From Candidatus Cloacimonadota bacterium (GTDB lineage: Bacteria > Cloacimonadota > Cloacimonadia > Cloacimonadales > TCS61): a stretch of DNA of 64,000 bases. The translations under genes and the position numbers were made by a program. The stretch is taken from positions 1,823 to 65,822 of the forward strand of contig JAIPJH010000001.1 in NCBI GenBank assembly GCA_021734245.1, in the 5' to 3' direction. Below the pieces are notes generated by a model. It was not told the origin of the DNA, did no database searches, and saw nothing but the letters and a program-made list of their open reading frames with translations. Positions 3,814 through 61,455 of this stretch are shown piece after piece; position 1 is the first letter of the stretch; each line of letters starts with the position of its first letter.

Positions 3814-5346
3814 ATGAATAGATATTTTGTTCTTTCGTTTTTATTGGTTATATTTGTGTCATTATCCTTAAATTCCCAAGGCATTAGTTACAAACCCACT
3901 AATGAATCTTACGATCTAAACTGGGAAAAACCAGATCTTAGAAGTCAAACTCATCAATCAATATTATATGAGCATTCTGAGGAATTCAATTATTTCGAAG
4001 CTGTAAATGATAGTTCTTATTTTGCTTTAACGAACTCTTCAACTTTTAAAAACGCAGTAGTAAAACTTTTTACAGAGAAAAGAAATAACTCCAGATTCTA
4101 TTTTAGAAAAAAGCAATTCCCAAATTATTTTGATGAAAAACCACTGACAACAAAATTGGAAGTGAAACTTTACTGCGGAAATGATTTCGCCGGAAATGAT
4201 GAAGACAGATATTTTTTCCCTTATTACGGTTTTAATTTAAATGGTTATCTCACCAGGAGATTCCTGTTTTATGCAGATTTCTGGTCTGGGCATTATTTTG
4301 GTGATAGAGATTTTGCAGAGCAGGCAGAACTTATAAATAGTTGGACACAGAATTCCGATGACGGAAAGCAAATATTTTTGGATAATGCCCGCGGAAAAAT
4401 GCTATATTATCCAATGGATTTCTGGTCAGTAGCAATCGGTAGAGGAAAATATGAGATCGGGAATAATATTGGCGGTAGTATTATTCTAAGTGATAATTGT
4501 GTTGATTATGGTTATTTTTCCACCAAATTTGATTTTGAAAAATTCTATGTACATTTTCTGCATGGATCCTTGATTGCAGACAGCACTCTTACCGGCGAGA
4601 AAGACTATCCAGACAAGTATCTTGCTACTCATAAATTTGGCTGGAAGCCTTCCCAAAAATTAGAATTATTCTGGGGAGAGCATGTTGTTTATGGTGCTCA
4701 AGCCATAAACCCTAGTTATTTGATCCCTTTCACATATTGGCGTGGAACAGAACACAATCTTTCCGATCGAGATAATGTATTAATCTATTTTGGAACAAAT
4801 TATACTAGTAATAAATCACTGTTCTATTTTAATTACATTTTTGATGAATTATCGTTTTCCAAACTTACTGAAAGTTCATGGATGAATAAATATGCTATTC
4901 AAACCGGAATTTCAACATACCTGTCAGATACTATCAGGCTGACTGGTGAATTCACTGCTGTTCGACCCTGGATTTATACACATGAATCTTTACATGGCAA
5001 ATTCTCAAATTATGGAAGAAGTCTTGGCTTTCCGGATGGAACAAATCTTATTCAGTATGCTATGGAATGCAGCTGGAATATCAAGGATAATTTGAATATA
5101 GTAACTCATGCTTCTTATACAAGACAGGGCAGTGTGGGAAACAACTTTGCAATAAATTATAATGACAGACCCAGCGATACTGTACATTGGCTGGAAGGAA
5201 GTATAACCGATACAGCAAAAACTATTTTGATTGTTGACTGGCAGCCATTATCGCATCATCGTTTTAGAACCAGTTTGATCTCCACCAGAATCGCTGAAAA
5301 TGATATTGAGCATGAATTGATGCTGAGTTATCAAGTGCAATATTAA
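3814..5346 (+). CDS. secreted, probable outer-membrane beta-barrel protein of unknown function (possibly Wzi-like)
   Basis: 510-aa ORF with signal peptide MNRYFVLSFLLVIFVSLSLNSQG. Aromatic-rich alternating segments and a C-terminal ...LSYQVQY aromatic terminus are typical of OMP barrels. The family assignment is tentative. Confidence 0.45.
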   Translation: MNRYFVLSFLLVIFVSLSLNSQGISYKPTNESYDLNWEKPDLRSQTHQSILYEHSEEFNYFEAVNDSSYFALTNSSTFKNAVVKLFTEKRNNSRFYFRKKQFPNYFDEKPLTTKLEVKLYCGNDFAGNDEDRYFFPYYGFNLNGYLTRRFLFYADFWSGHYFGDRDFAEQAELINSWTQNSDDGKQIFLDNARGKMLYYPMDFWSVAIGRGKYEIGNNIGGSIILSDNCVDYGYFSTKFDFEKFYVHFLHGSLIADSTLTGEKDYPDKYLATHKFGWKPSQKLELFWGEHVVYGAQAINPSYLIPFTYWRGTEHNLSDRDNVLIYFGTNYTSNKSLFYFNYIFDELSFSKLTESSWMNKYAIQTGISTYLSDTIRLTGEFTAVRPWIYTHESLHGKFSNYGRSLGFPDGTNLIQYAMECSWNIKDNLNIVTHASYTRQGSVGNNFAINYNDRPSDTVHWLEGSITDTAKTILIVDWQPLSHHRFRTSLISTRIAENDIEHELMLSYQVQY

Positions 5347-5355
5347 GAAAATATT

Positions 5356-6222
5356 ATGCAGAGACTCTTGAAAAATCGTCTTTTCTTTTACTTCAAGATA
5401 GTTGTAACGATTATTATCCTGTATTTCGTGTTTCGAAAGATCGATTTAGTTGTTCTAATTAATTCCTTTAAGCAGATTTCACTTCCTGTTATATTGGCAA
5501 TGTTCATCACCACAGTTATCAAGATCTATATAGAATACAAGAACTGGGGACATTATCTTTCCATAAATCCTGACTATAAATTACGTCCTCGAGATATATT
5601 TAAATCTCACATGATCGGTCATTCTCTTAGTTTGATTATTCCCGGTGGTTTGGGAGTAGCCGGAAAAGTTTTCTTCTTGGATAATTCCAAAGGTCACACT
5701 TTTATGTCTTTGGGAGTAGAAAAATTTTTCCAAATTTGGATAAATCTGCTTTTTGCCAGTTTTGCTGCTATTTTCTATTTCAGGAAAATGAATATTCTTA
5801 TTCCGATCGTAGTATTTGTTTTTGTGATATTTCTTCCTCTTTTTATCTATTGGATCAAGCATTTGAATCGCCGAAAAAGCATAGAAAAATATTTCCGAGA
5901 ATACATCAAAATATTACCACGTGTCAGCTTTATGCAGATTACATATATGTTTATAACGATTTTTCAATACTTTGTACTTGTAAATGTATTTCTGAAGTAT
6001 CACATTTTTTCGGCAATTATCTCGGTTCCATTGATTTTGTCTTCAAATCTAATTCCGATAACTTATGCCGGTTTGGGGCTCAGGGAAAAATTTGCGATTG
6101 AAATATTCTCAAAATATGCAATTTCTTCCGAAATAGCTGTAGCTGTAACTTTAACGATTTTCTTGTTTAATTCAGTTCTTCCAGCTTTGGTAGGAATTGT
6201 TTTATTTATGAGAAAAAAATAA
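5356..6222 (+). CDS. polytopic membrane protein, flippase-like / lysylphosphatidylglycerol-synthase-TM (UPF0104) type
   Basis: 288 aa with multiple hydrophobic helices. The N-terminus (KNRLFFYFKIVVTIIILYFVFRKIDL) is typical of this family. Starts 10 nt after the preceding gene. Confidence 0.5.
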   Translation: MQRLLKNRLFFYFKIVVTIIILYFVFRKIDLVVLINSFKQISLPVILAMFITTVIKIYIEYKNWGHYLSINPDYKLRPRDIFKSHMIGHSLSLIIPGGLGVAGKVFFLDNSKGHTFMSLGVEKFFQIWINLLFASFAAIFYFRKMNILIPIVVFVFVIFLPLFIYWIKHLNRRKSIEKYFREYIKILPRVSFMQITYMFITIFQYFVLVNVFLKYHIFSAIISVPLILSSNLIPITYAGLGLREKFAIEIFSKYAISSEIAVAVTLTIFLFNSVLPALVGIVLFMRKK

Positions 6223-7257: not shown

Positions 7258-7297
7258 AAATTATTCAATTTTGGTGTCAATATATAATAAAAAACTT

Positions 7298-7523
7298 GTA
7301 TCCCCGAAAAATTTGGAAGGTATAAACCTGATTTATTTTAATAAATGAAATTGTTGCTATTCTACCCGTCTAAAATCTTATCCAGCAAAGCCCACGAATT
7401 TTTTAACCTGTGAAATCAATTCAATTTCACCGGGTCATTCATGGGAATCTTGATACGAGAAATATTTCTGACAACGGTTTCAACCGTTTACACTGAAAAA
7501 TAAATATTTTTCGGGTGATGCGC
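7298..7523. repeat. TIR-bounded hairpin-rich element, copy A (about 226 bp)
   Basis: Left end GTATCCCCGAAAAATTT and right end AAATATTTTTCGGGTGATGCGC are inverted repeats. The core is near-identical to 18214..18550. Internal hairpins: CCCACGAAT...ATTCATGGG and AACGG-TTTCAA-CCGTT. Confidence 0.75.
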
Positions 7524-18097: not shown

Positions 18098-18213
18098 AAC
18101 AACTCCATGCATTTTTTTTGGAAAAATGTTTAGAAGTGTTTTTTTGTCAATGAGAAATTACATTCCGTTAAATAGTAATTATTTAGCATTATTTGGGACA
18201 GAATATCTGAAAC

Positions 18214-18550
18214 CACGCATCCCCCCGAAAAAATTGAAAGGTATAATCCTAATTTATTGTAATAGCTGAAATTGTTATTATTTTTCCCGTCCAAAACCTT
18301 ATCCAGCAAAGCCCACGAATTTTTAACCTGTGAAATCAATTCAATTTCAGCGGGTCATTCGTGGGAAACCAGATACCGAATATAAAATTTATAACGGTTT
18401 CAACCGTTTTGCAAATTATAAACCATTGAAATGGTTATTTCAAAAAGATTTGAAAATTTACCCATGAATAAATTCATGGGCTTGAAATATTGAAATTCAT
18501 GCTTCTTCTTATTGATTTCTGAAAAAGAATTTTTTTTCGGGGGATGCGTG
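18214..18550. repeat. TIR-bounded hairpin-rich element, copy B (about 337 bp)
   Basis: About 22-bp terminal inverted repeats: CACGCATCCCCCCGAAAAAATT and AATTTTTTTTCGGGGGATGCGTG. The core is shared with 7298..7523. There is an extra module of about 110 bp with hairpins AACCAT-TGAA-ATGGTT and CCCATGAAT-AA-ATTCATGGG. Confidence 0.8.
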
Positions 18551-21295: not shown

Positions 21296-23218
21296 TCATT
21301 TTAAAAGTAGCATTTTTTTTTGCAGATTGATTTTTTCAGTTTTGAACCGAGCAAAATAGATACCGCTGGAAACTGGTTTGTTGTTTTGGTCGGTTCCGTT
21401 CCAGATTATTTGATGATCTGGAGATTGGGTGATTTGGAGATTTGAGAATGTTTTAACTTTCTGACCTTTTAGATTGTAAATTTCGATGATCGCAAATGAG
21501 GACGTTTGCGGTACATTGAAGCTGATTTTTGTAGTGGGATTGAAGGGATTGGGAAAGATATTTAAATCGAGATCAGAATCAGGAACAATGTTAGAATCTA
21601 TTGATGTGATTGCATTCAAGTCAAAATCGATCGGGCCAGTTGGAGCTCCGCTTTCTACCAGAACATCATCGATAGTTTGTGGTTCATAATTATCCAAAGA
21701 TGCAGTTATAGAATACGTTCCTGGTGAAAGTTCTAAAGAGTAAAATCCAAATTCATCGGGATTCGTAATCATGTTGGCAGTTGTTATTTCCACATCTATC
21801 ACATTTCCATTTCCACCGATCAGTGTGACGTTGCCGAAAACCATTCCGGGTGCAACTAAACCCCTTCCTTCATAAACTTTCATCTCATAGCTATCTGCAC
21901 AAATAACAAGATGTCCATCCATTCCAAGCGCGGGTCCGTCCGGTCTGTCAAATGTATCTTCCCAGATGAGGTTGAGCGATTCATCAAAACAGAAAAGTTT
22001 GTCCTGATGATTTGTGATGTAAAGATATCCTTCAGCATCAACGGCAGCATGAGGAGAAACAATACCTGCGCCTGGATCACCAATGACAATAGAAGTATCT
22101 AATATCGCTGGTTCACGATTATTGGAAAAATAATGCTGTCTTACTTTTTCTTCTCCTTTTGCAGGATAAATGGAACCAGCAAATAAAGTAGTTCTGTAAT
22201 TTGGAATATCATTGCTGATCCTGGTAGATGAATTTAAGATATCACCGCTATGAGAATCGATATGGATAACCTGATAATCGTAGTTGTAGGAATAAACATT
22301 TCCGTTCAGATCAACGCCAAAAGTGGCAAAAGGAATATAGCACAAACCAATCTGCCACATTCTCTCCAATTCACTTCCTGTATCGGTAAAAGCAACCAGC
22401 GAATCGGTTACTACATTGTTTTGGGTTCTGGGTGCATAAACTATTCCATCTGGACCCACGAAACAGCCAAGCTGTTGAACCAAACCGCCACCAACTCCAC
22501 CACTTTCATACAGGAACGCTCCTGTTTCAATATCGTGAACAACTATGGAAGGTCCGCTGGTACTGGCAGCCCAGCCATAAACATGATTTTCATAAACTGA
22601 AACTTCACTGCCGCTGGAAGTTGGGCTGTATCTGGTTTCCTGCCAGATCAATGAACCATCTGAAGCATTCAATCGCATGATATTCTGGAAATTACCAATG
22701 ATCAGATCGCCATTTTCAGCAAAAGTTACACATTCTCCTGAAGACATGTCTGTTAATTCTGTTGAAGTCCAGATTATCGATCCATCAGTTACATCCAGGG
22801 CATGCAGATAAGAAGCGTTCGTATTGCCGCTGCGGGTGGCATAAACCACGCCATCATTGGTACCGCAAACTCTACTTCGCCAGTCGGTGTCGGGAAAATA
22901 AACCGGCAGATCAACCGTCCACAATGTATCTCCGGAAGTGATATCATAAGCCACGATCCAGGTTCCATGCAGCACATCGTTCATATTGAAGGTCCGATCT
23001 GCAACGATCACATTTCCTTCTGTAAATGGCTGATGCGGCCAGTAGGAGAAAACATTACTTCCTTCCCACAAAACTTCATCTTCCGACAAGGAAGAAAGCA
23101 CACCATCCGCTTGTCCGTTTCGAGCAGGATTACCGCCATTTCCCACATGCCAGCTCCAGTTTTGAGCCGCAAGAATTACAGGTAAAATAATAAGGATTAT
23201 CAGTATTGATTTTCTCAT
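21296..23218 (-). CDS. secreted PQQ/BamB-like beta-propeller protein with T9SS C-terminal sorting domain
   Basis: Signal peptide. Repeated ..D..(T/S)G..(I/L)W.. blades. A carboxypeptidase-regulatory-like domain. C-terminus FPNPFNPTTKISFNV...IEIYNLKGQKVKTF...KKMLLLK. Confidence 0.75.
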   Translation of the reverse strand: MRKSILIILIILPVILAAQNWSWHVGNGGNPARNGQADGVLSSLSEDEVLWEGSNVFSYWPHQPFTEGNVIVADRTFNMNDVLHGTWIVAYDITSGDTLWTVDLPVYFPDTDWRSRVCGTNDGVVYATRSGNTNASYLHALDVTDGSIIWTSTELTDMSSGECVTFAENGDLIIGNFQNIMRLNASDGSLIWQETRYSPTSSGSEVSVYENHVYGWAASTSGPSIVVHDIETGAFLYESGGVGGGLVQQLGCFVGPDGIVYAPRTQNNVVTDSLVAFTDTGSELERMWQIGLCYIPFATFGVDLNGNVYSYNYDYQVIHIDSHSGDILNSSTRISNDIPNYRTTLFAGSIYPAKGEEKVRQHYFSNNREPAILDTSIVIGDPGAGIVSPHAAVDAEGYLYITNHQDKLFCFDESLNLIWEDTFDRPDGPALGMDGHLVICADSYEMKVYEGRGLVAPGMVFGNVTLIGGNGNVIDVEITTANMITNPDEFGFYSLELSPGTYSITASLDNYEPQTIDDVLVESGAPTGPIDFDLNAITSIDSNIVPDSDLDLNIFPNPFNPTTKISFNVPQTSSFAIIEIYNLKGQKVKTFSNLQITQSPDHQIIWNGTDQNNKPVSSGIYFARFKTEKINLQKKMLLLK

Positions 23219-23227
23219 GATTTCCTC

Positions 23228-26200
23228 CTATTTCAGCAACAACATTTTTTTTGTTAATTGCTGTTTTCCTTGCTTTAGTTTGTAAAAATATACTCCGGAT
23301 GATACAGGTTTATTATTTTCATCGGTTCCGTTCCAGACAATTACACCTTTGCTCGTTCCTAAACCTGCTTGCCAGTTCGTAGCTTCCTGCGAAGACTGGT
23401 TTGGGAAAGTAAACATTTTAACTTTCTGACCTTTAAGGTTGTAAATCTCAATTGTCGCAAAGTCGGAGCTTTGCGTTACGCTGAAGCTGATTGTTGTGCT
23501 TGGATTGAAAGGATTCGGGAAATTTTGGTTAAGAATTATTGTCTCAGCTTGTAAAATATCATCTGAATGTGGTGATATTTGTTCTGAAACTAAAATCATC
23601 TGATTTGTTTCGATATCATTAAGCTGTGAGATTTCTCCGGAAGGCCACATTACCAGAATTGAACCCACAGTTTCGGCGTCACCAAATCCTATCCTGGTAA
23701 TTATAGAATTATCTGCATTTACCAAAGTATTCTGGCTTACAACCGATCCACCAATCTCTGCTACCGATAAAATCTCGCAACCAATTCCATAATAGTTTGA
23801 ATTATAGCCTTCCAGTTCCACATAAAGCCAGTTATTGCCATTTCCATTATTCTGGAATAATTTATTATTCCCACCAAAATAGTTGTTCACAGCGAAAAAA
23901 ACATCCAAGTCTCCATCATCATCATAATCTGTCCAGCTTGCTTGCTTATTATAGTTACCATCATTTGCCAGAACTCCTTCCGAAGTCTGAGAAAAATTGC
24001 CCAGACCATCATTTTCCAGGATCAGGTTGAATCCGTCATAAGCCTGATGAAAAATATCGAGATCACCATCAAAATCGATATCAACAAAATCACAACCTCC
24101 ACCAGCATTTATATTGTCATGTGGAATATTCTGAACTCTGGTGAAAGATGCGTTCCCATCATTTTGATAGAGATAAACATCATACGAGCCGGCCGGCAAC
24201 ATTCCCGGAGCCACATAAATATCATAATCGCCGTCATTATCATAATCACCAGTCGCAGAGATATCAAAATTCTCCATTTCAGAAACGATAGGATCGTTCT
24301 GCAATGCAGTAAAACTGCCATCTCCGTTGTTCAGGAAAAGTGAATTCGTATCCGGTCCCGAATTTGCAATGAATACATCGGGATAGCTATTATCATCAAA
24401 ATCTGCCCAGACGCAGCTGCCGGAATTCTTGTTTTCCGAAACTAAAGGATCACCAGTAATTCGAGTAAAAGTTCCATCCGCATTATTTTGATAAAGAAAA
24501 TTTGCCTGAGTTCGATTGCAGACAAAAAGATCAAGCCAACCATCCTTATTATAATCTACCCATTCACAATCGGTAGAAGAACCGCTGTTATTTACAATAT
24601 CTCCGGTAGTAATTCTTGTAAACGTGCCGTCTCCCAGATTTTCGTAAAGCGCGTTATTTTCGTTGTAGTTGGAAACGAACAGATCAATATCACCATCATT
24701 ATCAAAATCTCCAGGAGCACAGCCGTAAGAACTGTCTCCGTCGGTTACGATGTCACCATCTGTAACCTTGGTAAAGGTTCCATCCTGATTATTCAAGTAA
24801 TAAAAATTGTGTTTACCATTATCACCATCATTATTACAAACAAAAAGATCATCCCAGCCGTCAGCATCAAAATCTGCCCAGCAGCAGTCGTAATTCCAGC
24901 CGCCGTCATTTACAATATTTCCGGTTGTGATCTGAGTAAAAGAGAATGTTTCTTCTACAAAATACTCGTAAGGTCCCATATCTACTTCATCACCATAAAT
25001 CCGATCTTCTCCAGCCAGATCAAAGGTGGTAAGTTCGTATGGAACTGGCAATATGGAAGTTCCGCTGTCAATACAGGGTGAATTTTCGGTTAACAGATAC
25101 TGATCGTCGATCAGAGGATCTGTATCGATGTTGCCATCCAGCCAGTTTACAATCGTATTAACTGTGGAAATACCGGTTTCTCCACCTTCGATACAGGAAT
25201 ATTCCGAAGTTACGGTATTTTGTCCACCATCAACTCTGCAATGTATCTGCTGTGGAAGATTTCCCCAGAGAACAGAGTTAACGAAATAAGGTGAAGAACC
25301 GCTCCAACCATAGAAAGCTCCGCCATCAGCATTGGAAGAATTATTGTAGAAAGCAGAATTAATATAATAAGAACTGCATTGGCTAGAAAAAATAGCACCA
25401 CCATCACTGGTTGAAATATTATCATAAACAAGCACATTCTGCAGAACAATTGTTTGCAGCCAGATGAACATTGCTCCACCCAGATTGGCAGAATTTCCTT
25501 CCATAATGCTGTTTTTCACAGTTAAATTTGTGTTGAATGTTCCGATCGCACCAGCTCTTTCTATTGCCTGATTGTGCAAAAACACACAATTATCTATTAC
25601 AGGATCAACAAGTGGTGCTTCTCGATAAAAAACTGCTGCCCCTCGCCGGGCTGAATTATCATGGAAAAATGAATTTGTGATATTCCCACCTCCTCCGACG
25701 TTATAATAAACAGCTCCTCCTTTATCACTGTTACAACCGTAAACCTCAATTTTATCTATGATTGGAAGAGAGTTGTCGTAGGCACAAATTCCACCTCCGT
25801 ATTCAGCATTACAGTTAGAAATTATTAAGTTTTCCAATTTGGGACTGGAAGCTAAATTGCAGAAAACTGCCCCTCCAAAAACATGTAGAGAACCAGACGG
25901 AGTTGTGTAGGATGTTCCACTGCCATTTTGCAATTTAAACCCTGTTAAAACAGCTGTGGAATCTTCTCCACTTTCAAAAAGTACCACGCCACCCATTTGA
26001 TTTCCATCGATTATTGTTTGGGAAATGTAACTTGTATCCTGCGTAGTATGATAGAGTGATGCAACTGTGATCAGTTTTCCGTTGAAATTCAGATTTTCCA
26101 GATAAGTTCCAGGTTGAACGAGAACTATGTCTCCATTTGCAGATGCGTCTATTCCTTCCTGAATCGTTGCATAATCATCTGGAATGTTTATAGTTATGGA

Positions 26201-28962: not shown

Positions 28963-29331
28963 CTAAAAATTCTCTGCTTTTTTAATTATACTTTTACATT
29001 TATCTTTACTTAATTCTTTGAAAATCATATCTTTGTAAGTTGGATATCTCGATTCAATATTTAAAGGTTCCAATTCATCAAGAAAATTTTTCTACTCTTC
29101 TGATAAAAAATTTTCAAGTTTGGTTGATTCTGTTAGATAAGTTAATCTATGAGCATAAGAAGGTTGCTTATCATAAGAATATACATAATAAGCTTTTAAT
29201 ATCTTTTCCACTGCTTGATGACACATAAATCCAACATATAAAAATCACTTTGTTCTGAGCATTGCTTTTGCTGTTTCAAAATCATAATTTGCTAAATCAA
29301 CCCAATATTTTACTTTTCTACTCCCACTCAA
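28963..29331 (-). pseudogene. HEPN-domain protein (toxin partner of MNT) with two in-frame stops (TGA 29247..29245, TAG 29094..29092)
   Basis: My translation: (TTG)SGSRKVKYWVDLANYDFETAKAMLRTK*FLYVGFMCHQAVEKILKAYYVYSYDKQPSYAHRLTYLTESTKLENFLSEE*KNFLDELEPLNIESRYPTYKD...AENF*. It shows the HEPN signatures (helix pair, ..SRYP..). The stop sits 1 nt before the MNT ATG. The start is uncertain. Confidence 0.7.
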
Positions 29332-31180
29332 TCGTTCCCGGCGGCTTGGTCGTCACATCATAGAGCAGATTGCCAACTCCATTTATTTTTTGAATAAGTC
29401 TTGTAAGCCGTTCAAATTCAGCAAAATCCATTTCATAAACGCTGGCAGTCATGGCATCGGTAGAACAAACCGGACGTATAACGAAAGCCTGTTTTTTATT
29501 TTGATAAAGTGGAAGCGCTACTACCGGCATTTGCCAGATCTCCGGAATGTGATCAGTTTCCTGTCGCAAAACTGCATCTACTTTCCGCAATTTATCCATG
29601 ACCGGTTTTTCCAGGAAAAGTTTCTGTAGCTTTAAATCGACCGGCTGCCAACTGAACACGATCCTGTTGACTGATATTAGTTTATTGATAGCTCTTGATG
29701 CTCCAATTCTCAGATTTTCCCATTCCGGTTTAAAATCTGACTTGAACCAAACTACCGCAGGATGATGATAGGTGCGGAAATCTCCCTGCACACCTACGCT
29801 CTTGATCGGCAGGATTTTTCCTTCTAAACCAAATTCTATTAATATCTCGTTTAGCATTTTTTCTTCTTTTTCAAAATCATCCCGAGTTGTATAAGTGTCA
29901 TCCTGAGCGGAGTCGAAGGATACACTCTTCTTTGTCGCACTTCGACTACGCTCAGTGTGACAGTCATTTATCTCTGTATCCGAGCAGATAACACGGATCG
30001 CTAAACCTGGACCGGGAAAAGGATGACGATGGACCAGTTTTTTGGGTAATCCAAGTTCTTCTCCCAGTTTGCGAACTTCATCTTTGTAGAGTTCTTTAAT
30101 CGGCTCAATCACACGTCCTTCTGCGATGAGTTTTGCAATTTCATCCACTCGATTGTGATGTGTTTTTATCTTAGCTGCTTTATCTGTAGAACCACTTTCG
30201 ATTGTATCGGGATAGATCGTTCCCTGCACCAGCATCAATTCTGCTTCTTTTTCCAATGCTGCCAGTTCCTGATTGGCAATATCAACGAAAAGTTTACCGA
30301 TTATCAAGCGTTTTGCTTCCGGTTCTACAACGCCCTTAAGTTCGTTCAGATAAAGTTCTTCCGCAGCGATGATCTTGATATTTTCGAAACCGAGTTTTTC
30401 AAAATGTTCCATGATCTCTTTGGATTCGTTCTTGCGCATGAATCCTGTGTCTACATGGATGGAAAAAATATTTTCATTCCCAACTGCCTGAATGCAAAGT
30501 TCCAGAGCAACGAGGGAATCAACTCCACCTGAAAGCAGTAGAACTAATTTTCTGCCTTTTGCTTCTTTTCGAATTTGCTGAATCAGTGTTTCTTTGAAAT
30601 TTTCTGCTTTCCAGTCGCGTTTTTCAGTACAAACTGAAATGAACTTATCCAGTATATTCAAGCCGTTTGTAGTATGTGTCACTTCCGGATGGAACTGCAC
30701 TCCAAAAAATTTCTGATCTTTTGATTCATAAGAAGCAACTTTTATCGAATCGGAATAAGCTGTGATGCGGCATGAATCAGGTAATTCTGAGACATGATCA
30801 CCATGACTCATCCAAACTGTTTGCTGAGAATCCAAACCAGAAAACAAAGCAGAATTGTTTTCGCAGTTGATCGAAGTGAATCCGTATTCTTTGTTTTCTC
30901 CGCTTTCGATCGTTCCACCCAGCATGGCAGCCAGGATTTGATGTCCGTAGCAGATTCCCAGAATTGGACTCTGAATTTCTTCGATTTCAATGTTTATACG
31001 ATACGCATCTTCAGCATTTACCGATTGCGGTCCGCCGGAAAAGATGATGCCCCCAATTTCGTCTGTAACTTCAAATTCTTCGGGGTGATAGATCTCGCTG
31101 TAAACTCCCAGGTTTCTAACTCGACGAGCAATTAGATGTGTGTATTGTCCGCCAAAATCTATAATTGCAATTTTATTCAT
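29318..31180 (-). CDS. guaA: GMP synthase (glutamine-hydrolysing), long form
   Basis: N-terminal class I GATase (GICYGHQ), ATP-PPase P-loop (SGGVDS), and C-terminus KPPGTIEWE. At 620 aa it has an extended two-part C-terminal region and an in-frame repeat-derived insert. Confidence 0.9.
   Translation of the reverse strand: MNKIAIIDFGGQYTHLIARRVRNLGVYSEIYHPEEFEVTDEIGGIIFSGGPQSVNAEDAYRINIEIEEIQSPILGICYGHQILAAMLGGTIESGENKEYGFTSINCENNSALFSGLDSQQTVWMSHGDHVSELPDSCRITAYSDSIKVASYESKDQKFFGVQFHPEVTHTTNGLNILDKFISVCTEKRDWKAENFKETLIQQIRKEAKGRKLVLLLSGGVDSLVALELCIQAVGNENIFSIHVDTGFMRKNESKEIMEHFEKLGFENIKIIAAEELYLNELKGVVEPEAKRLIIGKLFVDIANQELAALEKEAELMLVQGTIYPDTIESGSTDKAAKIKTHHNRVDEIAKLIAEGRVIEPIKELYKDEVRKLGEELGLPKKLVHRHPFPGPGLAIRVICSDTEINDCHTERSRSATKKSVSFDSAQDDTYTTRDDFEKEEKMLNEILIEFGLEGKILPIKSVGVQGDFRTYHHPAVVWFKSDFKPEWENLRIGASRAINKLISVNRIVFSWQPVDLKLQKLFLEKPVMDKLRKVDAVLRQETDHIPEIWQMPVVALPLYQNKKQAFVIRPVCSTDAMTASVYEMDFAEFERLTRLIQKINGVGNLLYDVTTKPPGTIEWE
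29895..29963. repeat. 69-bp imperfect palindromic element embedded in frame in guaA
   Basis: Arms GTGTCATCCTGAGCGGAGTCGAAGGA and CACTTCGACTACGCTCAGTGTGACAG. Related copies at 34414..34442 and 61711..61740. Confidence 0.8.
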
Positions 31181-31207
31181 TAATCCTCTTTCATATCTAA
31201 TACTAAG

Positions 31208-31338
31208 CTCCCCTTTGTAAGGGGAGGGCGAGGGGTTTTGGCGGATAAATAACCAATCTTGATTTTATAAAACCCCCTCCCAGTGGAATATCCACAGGAT
31301 TCCACGGGATAAATTTTGTCCCCCTTCTAAAGGGGGAC
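31208..31338. repeat. composite GC-rich four-hairpin repeat (family R2), copy a
   Basis: CTCCCCTT-TGTA-AGGGGAG; GAGGGGTTTTG...AAAACCCCCTC; GTGGAAT...ATTCCAC; GTCCCCCTT-CTA-AAGGGGGAC. Near-identical to 38109..38239. Confidence 0.85.
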
Positions 31339-31926
31339 TTTTTGCGTCTTTGTGATCTTTGCGGTTAAGATTTCTCTTAAGCACTTACTATAAAATTCAT
31401 GTTCCACTTTCAAGCCCCTCTTTTCCACTTCTTCCAGAGAATTACAACCGTTCAAATCCACAGCTCTCTGCCTGATGATCTCGCCGGTATCAAGTCCTTC
31501 ATCAACAAAATGAACAGTGATTTTAGTCTCCTTTATATTATTTTCCCAAGCCCATTCATAGCCGTGTAAACCTTGATGTTCGGTAGTATCAGCAGGATGG
31601 ATATTAATAATTTTTCTGGGAAATTCCTGGATGATCTCGACAGGTAAAACCTTCATATAACCTGCTAATACAATAAAATCTGGTTTCTCCGATTTCAACC
31701 ATTTCAATAAAAGCGAATTATATGTTTTCTTCTTCTTTCCTTTGGATGGAATGCAATGAGTTCTGATACCCATTTCATTAGCTTTTTGCAGTCCAGGTGC
31801 TTCAGATTTATTGGAAAAGACAGTTTGGATTTCGCAAACATCTTTCAGAATTCCAGACTGAATATTTTTGGCAATGGCAAACATATTGCTGCCACGACCA
31901 CTGATCATGATAATGATTTTATTCAT
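31327..31926 (-). CDS. purN: phosphoribosylglycinamide formyltransferase
   Basis: 199 aa, reading IIIMISGRGSNMFAI...INIHPA. The last three codons and the stop lie inside a repeat hairpin. Confidence 0.9.
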   Translation of the reverse strand: MNKIIIMISGRGSNMFAIAKNIQSGILKDVCEIQTVFSNKSEAPGLQKANEMGIRTHCIPSKGKKKKTYNSLLLKWLKSEKPDFIVLAGYMKVLPVEIIQEFPRKIINIHPADTTEHQGLHGYEWAWENNIKETKITVHFVDEGLDTGEIIRQRAVDLNGCNSLEEVEKRGLKVEHEFYSKCLREILTAKITKTQKVPL

Positions 31927-31971: not shown

Positions 31972-32358
31972 TTAATCTATTATATTAGGAATCCTCTCGA
32001 AATCAAATCCTTTTCTATTATTGGGGAAATTGATAATTACACCTAATTTATAACCAGTTGCTTTTAGATAATTAAATAGCTGTGCTTTGTGAAATTTATT
32101 AATTTGATTTTCACATTTTAGTTCGATTATAATTTTCTCATCAATGATTAAGTCCGCTTTATAATCCGCAATAACTTCACCTCGATAAACAATTTGAATA
32201 AGTTTCTGAGATTCAACAAAAAAATCAAGTAATTGGAGTTCAATTACTAAAGCTCTTTCATAAACTTTCTCTAAAAAGCCATTCCCAAGTCTTTTCCGAA
32301 CTTCAATACAAGCTTTTTTAATCTTGTAACACTCATCCATATAAATTAAGCTTTTCAT
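31972..32358 (-). CDS. GxxExxY-family protein (PD-(D/E)XK-like)
   Basis: 128 aa with GNGFLEKVYERALVIEL, the GxxExxY motif. Confidence 0.75.
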   Translation of the reverse strand: MKSLIYMDECYKIKKACIEVRKRLGNGFLEKVYERALVIELQLLDFFVESQKLIQIVYRGEVIADYKADLIIDEKIIIELKCENQINKFHKAQLFNYLKATGYKLGVIINFPNNRKGFDFERIPNIID

Positions 32359-32406
32359 TTTTAACCTAACAAATTCGTGTTGTTGGTTTTGTTAGTTGCT
32401 TTAGAT

Positions 32407-33547: not shown

Positions 33548-34840
33548 TTAAAATAATTTTTTTCTTTTACCAATATCTTTTCGATAAAACATATCATCAA
33601 AAAAGTAATTATTCACCTTCTCATAAGCTTTTTGGATAGCATTATCCAGAGTTTCACCATGAGAAACAATATTTAAAACGCGACCACCTGAAGTTACAAT
33701 TTCACCATCCATTTTTTTTGTTCCGGCATGAAAGATCAATTCATCAGCTTTTTCCAAACCACAAATTGGATAACCTTTTTTGTAAGCTTTGGGATAACCG
33801 CCGGAAACCAGTACCACATCCACAAAAAAACCAGCGTTGAACTCCATCTGATAATCTTTTAATGAACCATCAAAGCAGCTTAAAACCAGTCTCAGCAAAT
33901 CACTTTTCATCGCTGGCAGCACAACTTCAGTTTCCGGATCACCCAAGCGGACATTGTATTCCAAAACCTCGGGTCCTTTTTCTGTGATCATCAAGCCAAA
34001 ATAAACTATCCCTTTGAAATTGAAACCTTCTGCTTTTATACCTTTCATGGTCGGAAGAATTACATCCTTCTCGATTTGCTTCTTAAGTTCTTCATTGTAA
34101 AATGGAACCGGGCAGAAAGCTCCCATACCGCCGGTATTGGGTCCTTTATCGCCATCCAAAAGTTGTTTATGATCTTGCGAAGGCAGAAGAAGCTGATAAT
34201 TTTCTCCATCTGTAAAAGCCAGAATAGATAACTCATCACCGATCAGTTTTTCTTCGATCAGATAAGATGCATCTTCCCCGTATTTGGAATGAATTTCCTG
34301 CAGAGCAGATTTTGCTTCTTCCAGTTTTGAGCAGACAAAAACTCCCTTTCCTGCTGCTAAACCATCATATTTTATTACACAATTACCATTGAGCTTTTTA
34401 ATTACTGACAAGCTGTCTCCTTCGACTCCGCTCAGGATGACATTTTTTTTATTTTTTTGTGCTTTTTTATGGCAATTTCCAAATTCCCAGAAATCTGCAG
34501 TAGCAACTCCATATTTCTGCATGAATTTTTTAGCAAAGATCTTGGATCCTTCCAGTTGAGCTCCGGCTTTATCCGGCCCAAAAACCTTAACCGGTGTTTC
34601 GGCAAAATAGTCTACAATTCCGTTTGCCAGAGGATCTTCCGGCCCCACAAAGATCAGTTCGATCAATTCTTGAGCACAAAATTCCTTGATATCTGCAAAA
34701 TCATTTACATCAATTTTTACATTATTTTTCGTTCCACCATTTCCTGGTAGAACATACACTTTATCAGCTAAATCGCTTTGTTCCAATTTCCAGGCGATGG
34801 CATGTTCCCTGCCACCAGAACCGATAACTGCAATATTCAT
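33548..34840 (-). CDS. purD: phosphoribosylamine-glycine ligase
   Basis: MNIAVIGSGGREHAIAWKL start (ATG after AGAGG; the track starts 6 codons upstream). ATP-grasp DGLAAGKGV motif. Carries a repeat-derived in-frame insert. Confidence 0.9.
   Translation of the reverse strand: MNIAVIGSGGREHAIAWKLEQSDLADKVYVLPGNGGTKNNVKIDVNDFADIKEFCAQELIELIFVGPEDPLANGIVDYFAETPVKVFGPDKAGAQLEGSKIFAKKFMQKYGVATADFWEFGNCHKKAQKNKKNVILSGVEGDSLSVIKKLNGNCVIKYDGLAAGKGVFVCSKLEEAKSALQEIHSKYGEDASYLIEEKLIGDELSILAFTDGENYQLLLPSQDHKQLLDGDKGPNTGGMGAFCPVPFYNEELKKQIEKDVILPTMKGIKAEGFNFKGIVYFGLMITEKGPEVLEYNVRLGDPETEVVLPAMKSDLLRLVLSCFDGSLKDYQMEFNAGFFVDVVLVSGGYPKAYKKGYPICGLEKADELIFHAGTKKMDGEIVTSGGRVLNIVSHGETLDNAIQKAYEKVNNYFFDDMFYRKDIGKRKKLF
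34414..34442. repeat. single arm of the GTCATCCTGAGCGGAGTCGAAGGA palindromic family, in frame in purD
   Basis: The reverse complement of 34414..34442 contains GTCATCCTGAGCGGAGTCGAAGGA, identical over 24 nt to the guaA copy. It is translated as VILSGVEGDS. Confidence 0.8.
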
Positions 34841-34915
34841 AAAAACCTCTTGTAGCAACTAACAAAACTAACTAAACGAACTTTTTTAGTTCGAATTTGT
34901 TCGATTTGTTCGCTG

Positions 34916-38070: not shown

Positions 38071-38108
38071 AATTTCCTCAAGTTATCTTTTGTAGAATCT
38101 CCACTAAG

Positions 38109-38239
38109 CTCCCCTTCGTAAGGGGAGTTTGAGGGGTTTTGTTTGAAAGTAATATAAATTCCACTATCAGAAAACCCCCTCCCAGTGGAATATCCATAGG
38201 ATTCCACGGGATAAATTTTATTCCCCCTTCTAAGGGGGA
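38109..38239. repeat. composite GC-rich four-hairpin repeat (family R2), copy b
   Basis: Same order of hairpins as 31208..31338. This is the source of spurious ORFs 38078..38269 and the start of 38139..38663. Confidence 0.85.
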
Positions 38240-38246
38240 TAGATAT

Positions 38247-45750: not shown

Positions 45751-47991
45751 TTATTTCATTAAAATCATTTTTTTTGTAATTGTATCATTTCCTGTTTTCA
45801 AGCTTACAAAATAGATTCCGCTGGAAACAGGTTGGTCGTTATCATCAGTTCCGTTCCAAACGATTTGCTGATCTGACGATTGATTGATTTGAAGATTTGA
45901 AAAGGTTCTGATTTTTTGTCCTTTCAGGTTATAGATTGCGATGGTGGCAAACGAGGAAGTTTGCGTTACATTAAAGCTGATTGTCGTAGTAGGATTGAAT
46001 GGATTGGGAAAGTTGGAAAGTGATATTTTTTGATTATCAGGAAGATCATTCCCGGCTGAAGAATTATCGTATTCATAAAGCTTAACTGAACCGGAAAGCC
46101 AGACTGGATTATTCAGATTATTAAAATTATCCCAGAATCCATACCAGCTTTCATTTGTTGGAACATCAAAAGAAGCTGAACCAGACTGCATCTCTAAAAT
46201 TTCATTGAACGTTTCGAAATTTCCACCCATTGTATAAATTTGATAATAAAGATCATCGGTCATAAAGAAGTTGACAACACCACCATCTTTTGCTGCATAA
46301 AACTCTGTATCATCTATATCATCAAAAATGAAATCTCCATGAATTATCTGTTTTAATACATCGTATTCAAATACCATTTGATAATCTTGTTCAGGATCAG
46401 CAGGAGTCGGAATTTGTGTATATTCGATATTCGGCATTTCACCATCTGCGATAAACACATATTCATATTCTTCACCGTTTATCGTATTATCGATCAATAA
46501 ACTGTATTCATCTGGATTTACAGGATCATCTCCAATGGAAGATTCCATTCTGGCATAAAATGATCTTCCTTCTCCGACGATGAAAACATATTTTCCATCT
46601 TCATCGGTATAACCAAAGTTATCATAAACTAAGCCGGGATCAGTTATTTTCAATATTATCTTTGCACCATCAATAGGATTGCCGTTAATATCTTCGGCAT
46701 AAACAGTTATCGTAGCATGTTCTTCTGAATATCTGTCTGTAACCGGCAAAAGCAGACCATCACTGCGAATTTCGAATACCGAACCGAAAACCTTGCCCCA
46801 GCCGTTTTCATAAACCAGTGGAATATTGATATAGCCATTTACAGGTTCCCACATGATCCAGCCTTCGTTCCAAAATTCGTTCCAGGTATGATCTCCAGAA
46901 TAGCTGAGAACACTTGAGCAGGGAATTAATGCAGAGCGCGCAGCAGCTGAAGTGAGATCGGCATATTCACCACATCTTCCAAAATGCTTACGATAAATCC
47001 TGACGGGTTGATGCGGACGTTCATAATTGGAAGTGAAACTCATGGATGCATTTATCCAATTTGTTACTTTATTTATAGCAGTATCAGTTGTTCCGCCGGA
47101 TTCATCCCATAAAACAGAAATTCCGGAAAGTTCATCTCGCAGAACTGGATAATTCATATCAGCCTGATTAAACAAAAAATCTCGCCAGAATCTGCCAACT
47201 GGAGGTGCTACAATATTATTTTGATGCGTGTTATTATCTTCCACTATTTCAGGATCGACATATGATGATATCGCATCCGTTATTTTGGGATGAACGATAT
47301 ACATGTAGTAAATTTCTTTGGGAATTTCAAATTCGACCGTATCACCATTTTCATCGATTTTCCAATATTTAGCCGTTGAATAATAGTTTTCATCTGTTGT
47401 CGATGTTCCATAATCAACAATTTGTACAAAATCCAGATTCAGATCGGCCACAAAAAGCAGCATTGCATTATAATCGAATAATTCAGGATAACAAAAATCG
47501 GAACTGAGAAACTGAACTGATGAATGAGCGATTGCAAATGCTATCTCATCAATATGGGGATCATAAGAATTGTTGATTACTGCTGCAAGTTCATTCTGTG
47601 TATCTGTATCTAATTGAGTAAATTTATTCTGTAAAGCCGGCCTCAGCCATTTGGGACTCTTTTCCAAAGCTGCCAGAGCATCCGAGGTTAAAAGATCCAG
47701 AAAGTTCGAAACAACATTGATCTGACTTGAAATGTGATCAAATCTGGCACCCAGAAGATCACCATTATTCAAAATCGCTTCCAGATCAAGAGAATCAACT
47801 AATACCCAGCCTTCACGATTTGTTTCGTTATGATCCTTTTCAAAATTCCGATCATAATCTTCCTTGGAAATTGTTTTGGCAGGTTTTCCCTTAATATCAT
47901 TCCCTGCGGGAAGATAATTTGTAAGCCCATTTTCTGCGATTAATGCTACTGTAAAAATCAATAAAAAAACCAAAATAATACAACGTTTCAT
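45751..47991 (-). CDS. secreted transglutaminase-like protein with T9SS C-terminal sorting domain
   Basis: Signal peptide. Transglutaminase core GRCGEYADL...GDHTWNEFW. C-terminus FPNPFNPTTTISFNV...IAIYNLKGQKIRTF...KKMILMK. Confidence 0.7.
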   Translation of the reverse strand: MKRCIILVFLLIFTVALIAENGLTNYLPAGNDIKGKPAKTISKEDYDRNFEKDHNETNREGWVLVDSLDLEAILNNGDLLGARFDHISSQINVVSNFLDLLTSDALAALEKSPKWLRPALQNKFTQLDTDTQNELAAVINNSYDPHIDEIAFAIAHSSVQFLSSDFCYPELFDYNAMLLFVADLNLDFVQIVDYGTSTTDENYYSTAKYWKIDENGDTVEFEIPKEIYYMYIVHPKITDAISSYVDPEIVEDNNTHQNNIVAPPVGRFWRDFLFNQADMNYPVLRDELSGISVLWDESGGTTDTAINKVTNWINASMSFTSNYERPHQPVRIYRKHFGRCGEYADLTSAAARSALIPCSSVLSYSGDHTWNEFWNEGWIMWEPVNGYINIPLVYENGWGKVFGSVFEIRSDGLLLPVTDRYSEEHATITVYAEDINGNPIDGAKIILKITDPGLVYDNFGYTDEDGKYVFIVGEGRSFYARMESSIGDDPVNPDEYSLLIDNTINGEEYEYVFIADGEMPNIEYTQIPTPADPEQDYQMVFEYDVLKQIIHGDFIFDDIDDTEFYAAKDGGVVNFFMTDDLYYQIYTMGGNFETFNEILEMQSGSASFDVPTNESWYGFWDNFNNLNNPVWLSGSVKLYEYDNSSAGNDLPDNQKISLSNFPNPFNPTTTISFNVTQTSSFATIAIYNLKGQKIRTFSNLQINQSSDQQIVWNGTDDNDQPVSSGIYFVSLKTGNDTITKKMILMK

Positions 47992-53840: not shown

Positions 53841-53910
53841 GTCCCCCTTCATAAGGGGGAACAAAATTTATCCCGTGGAATCCTGTGGATATTCCACAGG
53901 GAGGGGGTTT
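53841..53910. repeat. partial family R2 repeat, copy c, inverted relative to copies a and b
   Basis: GTCCCCCTT-CATA-AGGGGGA, then CCGTGGAATCCTGTGGATATTCCACAGGGAGGGGGTTT. Confidence 0.8.
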
Positions 53911-58767: not shown

Positions 58768-61455
58768 TTATTTCAGAAGCAACATCTTCCTGGTTTGCAA
58801 AACTTTACCACTTTTAAATTTACAAAAATAAATTCCTGAAGCAACAGATTTATTCTTATCATCATTTCCGTTCCAAACAACACTTCCTACACTCGTTCCA
58901 AAACTCCCGTTTGGGAATGCAAAAGTTTTGACTTTTTGTCCTTTCAAGTTGTAGATTTCAATGGCAGCAAACGAGGACGTTTGCGGTACATTAAAACTAA
59001 TTGTTGTGGCAGGATTGAACGGATTAGGATAGATTGTCGTGATTCCTGTCATTAAGTCAAGTTCTTGTAAAACACCTGTACCTTCATAAATAAATCCGAT
59101 ATTTATTATTACTGATTCACCACCGTCATCATATACAGCACTCACACCTGCTAAATATGTTTGCCCATTAACCAGATTTTCAAATTGCCACTCAGTTTCT
59201 TCAGTAAAATCTACAAAGGTGGAATCCAAATATACATTGAAACCAGACAATGTATTTAAAGGTGGTGCCAGCCAGGATAATATTCCCGTATTTTCATCAA
59301 TCTGTACATTTCCGGGAGGTTCATAATTGCCCCCGAACCACTCCAAAGTAAGATCAATATTATCTGTAACTTGCCCTGGTATAACAATAACGTCCTCAAT
59401 AATATCAGTTTCATAATTGATCAAAGTAGCCATTACATCATAGGTTCCCGGCTCAATTGTGATTGAATAATCTCCATTTGCATCGGGATGCACAGTTTGA
59501 TCTCCTGCAATAACTTCCACATCTTCCACATTTCCGTTTCCACCATCCAACGTAACCATTCCTTCTATAGTTCCAGCGTATCCGGGATTTAACATTACAT
59601 CATCTACATACCAATAATTAATATCAAATGAATTACCTTCGAAAACCCAGGCTATTTGAAATGTTTCTGAGCCAACATCTGGTGATATGAAGTTAAGACT
59701 GATAATCTGAGGATCAATATTAGCAATCGGTTCAATTTCCCATACTGTATTCCAGTTAGTTCCATCGCTGGTTGTCTGTACTCTCAAAGTATAAGGGTCT
59801 CCATCATAGTCGTTCACAGAATGCCAAAATTCAAGCATTAAGGCTGAACAATCTTCTGTATTCAGAATTGGGCTTATAAGTCGTTGAGTTGCAGTTGTAC
59901 TTGGTGACCACGAAAATTGTGCTTCCGGTGCATTTCCACCTGCATTGTTGCCCATTCCGTGAACCCAGTTAACCTGCCCTGAAGTTGATTCTGTTGTCCA
60001 ACCATCAGGCAGCCAGGTGGTAAAATCTTCCAATATCAGATAAAGAGGTGGCCACCAGGGAATATTTGATTCTGCTATTCCACCATCACCTATAGCATTG
60101 TAAGGCTGGACGGAATAATAATAAATTCCTGCAGCAGGGATAGTATCGTCGATAAACTCAGTTGCAATACCTGCCAGTTCGAAAACACAATTATCCGGAT
60201 ATCGAACGATATGATATCCAAGAATAGACATATTGAATGCACCGCCATGTAAACCGGTTGTTGGATTATCCCAAGTTAGTGTTGCTGATAATATTCCTGG
60301 AGCAGTTTGCTCACATAGCAGGTTCTCAACTGCTGCCGGGACATCTTCCCCAACCCACACAGATTCCACATAGGGAATTCCCTCTCCATAGCTGTTGTAA
60401 CCTACTATTCTGTATTCATACATGCCATTGTCTGGAACAGTATTATCAAGATAACTTCCCGGTCCGCCAATGACAGGATCTTCGTCTGTATAGATCAAAA
60501 CATCATCACGATAAACACGCATTCCCAGTAATTCTGTTAAAGGTGTCCCATAAAACGTATTTTCAGGGCAAGTCCAACTTAAGCTTACTTCCAGGATACC
60601 AGAAGGATCAGGGATAATGTCCACATCCTGCGGACTTCCAGGAAAATCGCCTCAGGGTGAATAACCCACCTCTAAAAGCACAATATAATCCGGTGTTCCT
60701 TGCAGCAATACTCCTAATGATCTGTAACTGAGTTGCCAATCGGTCATAACGCAAGCACCGCCGGCAATAGCTCCGGCAGCCCCATAAATTGTAGCATTAA
60801 ATACATCTAATTGTGCCAGACTGTTGTAAGGATCGAGCCGATAGATATTACAACCGGGATCCTGGCTGTGAGCATAAAGATAAGGGCCAATTGGATCACA
60901 ATCATAAGCCAGACCATACAGAGAACCCCACCAGGGATAGCTGTTCAAAATAGTACCATCTCTATCCCAGTTTACGATGTTGTCTCCCCAGTTGCCACTC
61001 CAGAAAGTATCGCTAACCTCATCATATGCAAGCGCCCGAACTGATTGTCCAGCAACGTTGATAAAATTAGCTGTAACTGCATTTCCGGTTTCAGATTCCC
61101 AGCAGAAAACTTCCTGTGAAGCAGCTGAACCGTACATATAATTGCCATCGAAAGCCATGTCTCGACAACCTGTAAGAGGAGCTGTGATCGGTTCAATATA
61201 ATTTCCATCAACATCAAATTTGAAAAGCTGATCACTGCCGTTCCATTTGGATGCATAAAAATAAGTTCCATCCCATTCCACTCCGGCAAGTCCGGTCTGT
61301 CCTGTTGGTGTATCTACATCAAACTGCAGAAGCACATCCCACATATCTTCTGTTTCAGGAATATCGACTTTTGTCTGGATCGGAGATTTATCCTGAATTG
61401 AGTATGAATTAATAAAATATAAAATCACAAAAAATAAAATCGCAAATCGTTTCAT
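58768..61455 (-). pseudogene. T9SS-sorted surface protein split by a single in-frame TGA (60654..60652)
   Basis: The two track ORFs are in the same frame: ...LLEVGYSP*GDFPGSPQDVDIIPDPS.... The upstream part has the signal peptide (MKRFAILFFVILYF) but no sorting domain. The downstream part has the sorting domain (YPNPFNPATTISFNV...KMLLLK) but no signal peptide. Confidence 0.7.

Follow-up and report, generated by a model that had tools for sequence, protein, structure and literature searches.

The window, by which we mean the whole 64-kb stretch of Candidatus Cloacimonadota DNA analysed here (contig JAIPJH010000001.1), carries a purine operon in which two co-oriented genes, purD and guaA, each contain a translated short hairpin repeat. 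The purD gene (33548-34840, minus strand) encodes a phosphoribosylamine-glycine ligase of 430 aa with the Pfam domains GARS_N, GARS_A and GARS_C, and guaA occupies 29318-31180 on the same strand. Exactly two copies of the 24-nt sequence GTCATCCTGAGCGGAGTCGAAGGA are present in the window, at 29897-29920 on the plus strand within guaA and at 34418-34441 on the minus strand within purD, while none was expected from 100 dinucleotide-preserving shuffles. A repeat finder extends the pair to 32 nt with 94% complementarity, and the same 24-nt core is found in the purD gene of a relative discussed below.

In purD the core belongs to a complete hairpin unit of 29 nt, TGTCATCCTGAGCGGAGTCGAAGGAGACA (34414-34442, minus strand), which we recognize from its sequence, its fold and the covariation of its stem. 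The unit reads TGTCATCCT-GAGCGGAGTCGA-AGGAGACA and includes a 5' TGTCA leader, a stem TCCT/AGGA and the conserved 12-nt loop GAGCGGAGTCGA; because an outer TGTC/GACA is also paired in the purD copy, the unit spans the whole of 34414-34442. On the coding strand purD reads CAT, then the A-rich run AAA AAA GCA CAA AAA AAT AAA AAA AAT (KKAQKNKKN; 34442-34468, minus strand) directly 5' of the unit, and then GTC ATC CTG AGC GGA GTC GAA GGA GAC AGC, together HKKAQKNKKN-VILSGVEG-DS, with the unit itself translated as (N)VILSGVEGD(S). The initial annotation of this locus had reported the 24-nt identity with guaA, the translation VILSGVEG-DS and the adjacent KKAQKNKK, all of which agree with the open reading frame (ORF) and the repeat counts, and the interval that it gave, 34414-34442, coincides exactly with the palindromic unit TGTCATCCT...AGGAGACA in full.

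We compared the segment between the KYGV motif and the DGLAAGKG motif in 120 PurD relatives. It is 46 aa long in the window protein, 29 aa in most lineages and 34 aa in the closest insert-free relatives (P0002, P0003 and P0007; 81-84% identical); the window PurD is 12 residues longer than its nearest orthologues at the insert, and the solved PurD structure 2yrw has a 17-residue gap at this position. Compared codon by codon with the P0002 gene, the extra ~36 nt consist of AAA AAA AAT, the unit and GAC. Relative to P0002 and P0003, the nearest insert-free orthologues, they form the 12 codons KKNVILSGVEGD at 34415-34450 (minus strand), with edges that are ambiguous inside the A-run. The A-run piece GCA CAA AAA AAT is found in insert-free orthologues too, and AAAAAAAT within the run appears from its sequence to have been duplicated locally. 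An AlphaFold (AF2) model of PurD based on 42 relatives (predicted template-modelling score 0.84) has a predicted local distance difference test score (pLDDT) below 50 only in the insert region, at residues 123-140. This low-confidence stretch lies between a strand at residues 117-120 and a helix at 143-149 and contains the insert itself, at residues ~129-140. These comparisons show that the purD unit is carried in frame, as 12 extra residues, in what the model predicts to be a permissive, disordered surface loop, as the initial annotation had anticipated for both the in-frame insertion and its placement in a loop. It had also named two findings that would speak against an insertion. The sharing of the PurD segment by unrelated lineages was not seen outside Cloacimonadota. 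A chimeric assembly join is excluded, since the exact window PurD is encoded on 6 contigs of independent assemblies, including an NCBI metagenome-assembled genome (MAG) and a Logan assembly; the protein is also 100% identical to one annotated in a Candidatus Cloacimonetes MAG.

The guaA copy consists of two inverted units, at 29896-29920 (plus strand) and 29938-29962 (minus strand), which are separated by a 17-nt spacer and form a long hairpin (29896-29962). Its minimum free energy is -35.7 kcal/mol (z -6.2) as RNA, and as DNA it folds with -20 kcal/mol (z -5.1). The two units lie in an 81-nt (27-aa) in-frame insert, INDCHTERSRSATKKSVSFDSAQDDTY (29891-29971, minus strand), that is not present in 7 other Cloacimonadota GuaA proteins. 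The two genes carry the same repeat family, read in opposite orientation, with the matching unit giving VILSGVEG in purD and ...SFDSAQDD in guaA. In another member of the Cloacimonadota, an identical unit stands in frame in valS, the gene for valyl-tRNA synthetase (L047 4206-6890; ...KESVILSGVEGARTLKY...), immediately before the conserved TTRPETMLGD motif. In-frame units are found, then, in three unrelated housekeeping genes, of which two (purD and guaA) belong to the window and one (valS) to the L047 DNA.

Anatomy, distribution and gene neighbours of the repeat family

Across the family, the unit is made up of a 5' YGTCA leader, a stem of 4-5 bp, the conserved loop GAGCGNAGTCGA, the complementary stem and then usually a C. 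The loop comprises a C-GNA-G triloop, a bulged T and tandem G/A positions, and its positions 3 and 10 covary, being either G:C or C:G. In all of the DNA that we fetched, a stem with 4 or more bp closes 198 of the 250 matches to the loop core (GA.CG.AG..GA), and these stems differ widely in sequence. Stem variants with compensating changes include ATCCT/AGGAT, ACACT/AGTGT, AGGCT/AGCCT, ATGGT/ACCAT and ATCTC/GAGAT, among others, and the units in purD genes of relatives have the stems ATCCT...AGGAT, CACT...AGTG and ATGGT...ACCAT. Covariation was assessed in 40 variants, 38 of them from outside the exact scan pattern and the other two being the purD and guaA copies of the window. Alignment cells of the stem are paired in 91% of cases, against 69% after shuffling and 27-45% when the partner column is slid, and two-sided stem changes are seen in 66 cells where 18.5 were expected, with the observed covariation reached by none of 500 shuffles. 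GTCA is invariant in these variants, which had been chosen by that anchor. A T precedes the unit in 83% of 132 copies, the 3' end is most often AGGAT or AGGAC, and C is the commonest base (53%) two positions past the core. Rfam scans with the unit matched no family, whether run at gathering thresholds or permissively. By eye we further considered a hammerhead, a tRNA T-arm, domain 5 of a group II intron, and pieces of rRNA or RNase P, and set these readings aside, as their core motifs misfit.

A scan of species-representative genomes for GTCATCCTGAGCGNAGTCGAAGGA returned at least 120 loci. Among the matches listed, to which the counts in this paragraph refer, the exact 24-mer is present in more than 15 bacterial phyla, and the phyla represented include Bacteroidota, Acidobacteriota, Verrucomicrobiota, Eremiobacterota, Patescibacteria, Planctomycetota, Firmicutes, Proteobacteria, Chloroflexota, Spirochaetota, Gemmatimonadota, Nitrospirota, Ignavibacteriae, Fibrobacterota and Cloacimonadota. 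Solo copies are the commonest state, making up roughly half or more of the total, while an inverted partner lies downstream of 23% of copies and direct copies are close to 23%. Another feature is that 12% of copies lie between directly complementary flanks, in the apical loop of a host hairpin, compared with 3.8% of permuted controls. In non-coding contexts the 24 nt remain unchanged from phylum to phylum, and the unit is also found in complete genomes of cultured strains of Flavobacterium and Rubrivirga. In plasmid and phage collections it is rare, except for many copies on Sphingomonas megaplasmids, and most matches in these collections have no annotated feature beneath them. These results go beyond the initial annotation on two points. 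The family is not local to this genome. The purD copy, which had been described as a single arm, is not a broken arm: its 29 nt make up a complete hairpin whose stem covaries, in a family that occurs most often as solo units.

Two copies lie in or near matches to RNA families. In Pedobacter aquatilis, a Flavo-1 RNA gene (RF01705, 45 bits; L116 3551-3645) has the 24-nt unit inserted in its terminal loop, and a second, weaker Flavo-1 copy near this locus has a 52-nt loop insert. Flavo-1 was considered as the identity of the unit and rejected, as it is the host here, an RNA gene that has received the unit in its loop. In an Acidobacteriaceae sequence (L022 86-191), a sub-threshold match to YrlA, a Y RNA-like family (50.8 versus 69 bits), lies 25 nt upstream of a unit.

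All-against-all BLAST of the ORFs near the loci of the scan gave, among the matches listed, a single recurrent small neighbour, a cluster of GIY-YIG genes from three loci, and no recurrent transposase. At each of these loci (L089, L098 and L033), a single-domain GIY-YIG ORF of ~97 aa (Pfam PF01541) is preceded by a unit in forward orientation and followed by one in reverse complement. We searched 70 metagenomic GIY-YIG loci, encoding relatives of these three proteins, for the generic 5' half of the unit, GTCA-N3-5-GA.C. It is present upstream in forward orientation at 51 of the 70 loci, downstream in reverse orientation at 41 and on both sides at 35, compared with 19, 25 and 9, respectively, for the opposite orientations at the same loci, which served as controls. 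The chance level, as we estimate it from the information content of the pattern, is ~5% per flank. Several of the flanking units have the loop type of the window copies, for example CGTCATTCCGAGCGAAGTCGAGGAATCTC. These GIY-YIG cassettes were detected only with a relaxed unit descriptor; a search for inverted arm pairs with up to 5 mismatches found none around an ORF-sized segment (0.3-1.5 kb), the spacers being 12-169 nt or ~2 kb and more. Truncated 5' halves of the unit, TGTCATCYCGAACTCYCACC, form head-to-tail arrays beside full units and GIY-YIG genes (L098 ~4770-5010 and 5330-5480; also L083, L094 and L079), which suggests that copying has repeatedly aborted, or slipped, at the leader.

Insert types and allele exchange at the purD site

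The loop that holds the unit in the window PurD is occupied in several ways in other Cloacimonadota. The unit in the VILSGVEG frame is found at the same site in the window protein, P0008 and P0035, which are divergent PurDs, and in P0005 a 27-nt unit is nested in the loop of another unit, which it interrupts. Full hairpins read as CHGERSRT...SFDSAQDD are present in P0004, P0006, P0009, P0014, P0021, P0027, P0040, P0041 and P0069, and a different palindrome pair, read as SSELVP...NKFRST, in P0057, P0067, P0073 and P0079. The DCCQQLTIFPKD form is another insert type at this position. The purD site in Cloacimonadota is a hotspot with at least three insert types. In the DNA of one relative (purD at L130 8001-9272), the palindrome pair is AGTTCGGAACTTGTTCCGAAA ... 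ATCGAAACAAGTTTCGGACT, read as SSELVP...NKFRT; its difference from the unit studied here means that more than one hairpin family uses this loop. In two further relatives (purD at L004 8001-9329 and L007 1869-3188), one 27-nt sequence, (T)CCTTCGAC-NNN-GCTCAGGACAGGCTT(A), recurs within the loop of an outer unit, in two different insert types, so that units insert into other units or recombine inside them. We also considered whether DCCQQLTIFPKD, which occurs in one PurD clade, could be a collapsed palindrome; this was unsupported by the single DNA examined (L129).

The insert types are scattered on a neighbor-joining tree made without the variable segment, and closely related proteins can differ in their insert and nowhere else. 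P0035 and P0055 differ only at the insert site, with 95.5% and 96.7% identity on its two sides, and the same is true of P0027 and P0033 (95.5% and 98.9%) and of P0006 and P0017 (100% and 94.8%). At the nucleotide level, the purD genes of L003 and L128 are 98-99% identical except for an unalignable patch, which measures 125 nt in L003 and 65 nt in L128. The L003 patch, with flanking purD codons included, is 81-83% identical to the alleles of the window and L002, whereas the whole L003 purD is only 72% identical to that of the window. Against its near-identical sister L128, the patch gives a weak alignment (74%, with a score of 16.5 versus 48-50.5 for the window and L002). As it resembles distant unit-bearing alleles, the L003 patch is best read as a short-patch import rather than a fresh insertion at a naive site. 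Taken together, the sequence comparisons point to patch recombination as the way in which the purD insert has spread. The initial annotation had proposed a second, independent insertion, which is only partly right. The same unit recurs in the same frame at the same site in the distant PurDs P0008 and P0035, the several inserts at this site are not distributed as the gene tree would have it, and in one clear case a patch has been replaced between alleles.

The purD genes of the window and L002 share only 74% identity overall and 53% at third codon positions, and their units are identical at 24 of 24 positions. The translations of the unit, VILSGVEG, (C)H.ERSR and SFDSAQDD, moreover come from three different frames. 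This identity in otherwise diverged genes, together with the different frames, places the constraint on the DNA of the unit and not on the peptide.

Relation to known repeats and interpretation

Repeats that flank a GIY-YIG gene have been described in Neisseria, where NTS repeats (CGTCATTCCCGCGMAVGCGGGAATCYRG) and the wider Ssn-related motifs (SRMs) surround ssnA (Chenal et al., Nat Commun 2025, PMC11893778). SsnA, one of the Ssn nucleases (CDD family cd10448), is a 94-aa single-domain GIY-YIG protein that binds just one strand of the repeat, only as single-stranded DNA (ssDNA), and cuts it a few bases upstream; it restricts the integration of repeat-carrying transforming DNA, and strand-specific ssDNA binding with upstream cleavage was demonstrated for four homologues only (PMC11893778). 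The authors of that study likened the repeat-gene-repeat arrangement to an insertion sequence and compared it with REP/RAYT, and the SRM-rich genera that they list include Rickettsia, Wolbachia and Sphingomonas, the last being among the genera with more than 300 SRMs. The unit described here likewise belongs to the short hairpin repeats (20-50 nt) that have an orientation, a conserved 5' (C/T)GTCAT leader and a palindromic core; a C commonly comes after the core in this family, although it is displaced in the window's own copies. The 5' end of the purD copy, TGTCAT (34442-34437, minus strand), fits the SRM leader HGTCWY directly before the palindrome. Both kinds of repeat have many copies in many phyla and form inverted repeats around small (~95 aa) single-domain GIY-YIG genes, and Sphingomonas is rich in both, with our unit multi-copy on its megaplasmids. 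Unlike the SRMs, our unit has a stem of only 4-5 bp, which encloses the conserved 12-nt GAGCGNAGTCGA with an inner pair of its own. As its architecture and gene association are those of SRMs while the published SRM pattern does not match it (see below), we treat it as an SRM-like subtype.

Three other systems share some of these features. Rickettsia palindromic elements (RPEs; Ogata et al. 2000, reviewed in PMC10969869) are in-frame palindromic inserts in housekeeping genes, and they resemble the present units in being read in frame in unrelated genes of this kind, tolerated as a surface peptide, and present or absent by lineage. They differ in measuring ~100-150 bp, having one conserved peptide per family and being limited to Rickettsia and its relatives, whereas our unit is 29 nt long (66 nt for a pair), gives unrelated peptides from at least 3 frames and is common to many phyla. 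The REP/REPIN repeats are also short imperfect palindromes with a conserved 5' leader and an unpaired base in the hairpin, occur singly, as inverted pairs or in clusters, and flank the gene of an enzyme whose presumed substrate is their ssDNA hairpin form. However, REPs are extragenic and species-specific, with a GTAG leader and an HUH Y1 transposase (RAYT), while the copies studied here are translated, have a YGTCA leader, share their sequence across many phyla and are associated with a GIY-YIG nuclease gene. The homing of Seg-type GIY-YIG endonucleases of phage T4 offers a further parallel in its enzyme family and in the spread of an insert together with short flanks, which can be compared with the co-conversion-like patch in L003 and L128; yet the purD insert contains no endonuclease gene, and the Ssn enzymes cut ssDNA near the repeat rather than an empty double-stranded target. 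In the searchable literature, we found no description of translated SRM-type units in core enzymes or of this pattern of patch exchange, for which the SRM/NTS repeats and the RPEs of Rickettsia come closest as precedents. Searches by the DNA string of the unit and by its translated peptides gave unrelated primer matches or nothing, and those on Cloacimonetes repeats and on GxxExxY proteins found nothing relevant.

We consider it probable that the purD feature is one complete copy of a hairpin repeat of the class that flanks GIY-YIG genes, which was imported into or landed in a loop of PurD, acts there as a focus of Ssn-type breakage and recombination, and has its peptide carried along as a passenger. 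Following the published Ssn biochemistry, the unit would fold in ssDNA during replication or on incoming transforming DNA, and a cognate Ssn-type nuclease would bind the folded unit and nick a few bases upstream, which in purD would be within the A-run with its AAAAAAAT duplication. Repeated breakage and repair, or trimming of incoming DNA, could then make the purD site a focus of short-tract recombination that spreads and reshuffles the insert among purD alleles, with further units nesting in existing ones, while the encoded peptide would be tolerated without a function of its own. A bolder proposal, which we hold to be rather doubtful, is that SRM-type units are ORF-less homing or recombination hotspots in essential genes, where an Ssn-type nuclease triggers short-tract gene conversion that copies the hairpin and a few dozen flanking bases into unit-free alleles of the same gene. 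If so, a set of alternative cassettes would be circulating at one PurD loop across strains and species.

Several results weigh against the probable reading given above. The published SRM pattern, HGTCWYN(0-2)YYVSBRHN(0-5)WNVSBRGN(0-2)RNCYNB, which did match a canonical NTS control, found no match among 137 units or anywhere in the window. The purD copy ends in AGGAGACA and not in AGGATC, with the C that is reported as critical for SsnA binding displaced, and the guaA arm, ending in AGGATACAC, has it displaced as well. Folding of the single purD unit is weak as DNA (-3.6 kcal/mol, z -1.3, nearest-neighbour) and not significant as RNA (z -1.9), so the hairpin claim stands on covariation and not on thermodynamics. 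For the flanked GIY-YIG proteins, the sole relative in the PDB is the UPF0213 protein 1zg2, at E = 0.003. Neither the 64-kb window nor ~130 kb of DNA from related Cloacimonadota yielded a GIY-YIG or Ssn gene, which leaves a cognate nuclease in the organism of the window unproven. The neighbor-joining tree behind the polyphyly of the inserts is crude, and the exchange of patches could be ordinary homologous recombination unrelated to any nuclease.

Among the alternatives, a classical miniature inverted-repeat transposable element or RPE-like transposon, pasted by a transposase into purD and guaA and reduced in purD to a one-arm deletion remnant, would account for the two inverted arms and spacer in guaA and for the dispersal of copies in many genomes, and the Rickettsia elements provide a known case of in-frame palindromic inserts in housekeeping genes (PMC10969869). 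We judge it unlikely, because no target-site duplication flanks either insert, the 29-nt unit is a self-contained hairpin with solo units in the majority, and the recurrent small neighbour of the at least 120 loci, among the matches listed, is a GIY-YIG gene with no transposase family recurring. The 5-mismatch search also gave no arm pair around a 0.3-1.5 kb segment, and the distribution of the purD insert fits patch recombination. Lower still do we rate a role of the hairpin in mRNA, as an RNase site, a translational pause or a stabilizer of the pur operon transcript. The single purD unit lacks a significant RNA fold, even though the guaA hairpin is very stable as RNA and both copies belong to one co-oriented purine operon; units stand in both orientations relative to their host genes (sense in purD, both in guaA), most copies in other phyla are solo in varied contexts, no Rfam family matches, and the published SsnA binds ssDNA only and not RNA (PMC11893778).

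An insert kept for its protein role, with VILSGVEG as a selected loop that alters the regulation, interactions or stability of PurD, is marginally less credible again. The same peptide in the same frame in three divergent PurDs and the preservation of the reading frame in every case are what such selection would produce, but other PurDs read the unit in other frames or orientations (CHGERSRT..SFDSAQDD) or hold different palindromes, close relatives lack the insert, its pLDDT in the model is below 50, and the identity of the 24 nt across phyla in non-coding contexts places the constraint on DNA. That the window comes from a MAG and that the 24-mer is present in many MAGs of unrelated phyla might raise the suspicion of an assembly or binning artefact, such as a chimeric join or a contaminant oligonucleotide. 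We regard this as refuted by the six independently assembled contigs with the exact PurD, the in-frame position of the unit with normal purD sequence on both sides, its presence in the complete genomes of cultured Flavobacterium and Rubrivirga, and the compensatory stem changes among variants.

These findings join two separate literatures, that on the recently described Ssn nucleases and SRM repeats and that on in-frame 'selfish' palindromes in housekeeping genes. They extend SRM-type repeats to a subtype that the published pattern misses, to Cloacimonadota, and to translated sites in purD, guaA and valS. With near-identical genes that differ only by a 125-nt patch, the purD site offers a compact natural experiment on whether hairpins drive short-tract recombination. 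Annotators and curators of MAGs should expect units of this kind within genuine genes, where they represent neither frameshifts nor chimeras.

Neighbouring genes and other repeats in the window

Between purN and a radical-SAM gene, the window encodes a 128-aa PD-(D/E)XK ORF (Pfam PDDEXK_3, GxxExxY-type; 31972-32358, minus strand). Such ORFs are found in the pur operons of relatives at varying positions and in one to three copies, and they appear mobile for this reason. The ORF beside purD was considered as a master element for the unit and rejected, as none of 11 such ORFs is flanked by units. A 38-nt inverted repeat with 82% complementarity (32363-32400 and 34854-34891) brackets the radical-SAM gene and purD, its arms lying in the leader regions of the PDDEXK_3 ORF and purD.

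A second, unrelated composite hairpin repeat is intergenic and has three copies in the window, at 31202-31340, 38103-38240 and 53844-53910 (GTCCCCCTTTAGAAGGGGGAC..., ...GGGAGGGGGTTTT, AAAACCCCTC...GGGGAGCTTAGT); they are 90-96% alike and lie at gene ends in both orientations. An intergenic direct repeat of ~225 nt, 78-83% identical, is found at 7266-7489 and 18187-18409, 10.9 kb apart. Four large minus-strand ORFs have a common segment near their 3' ends (64-83% nt identity; 21333-21557, 23285-23522, 45788-46012 and 58825-59032), a similarity which suggests that they form a family of large, possibly secreted proteins with a C-terminal domain in common.

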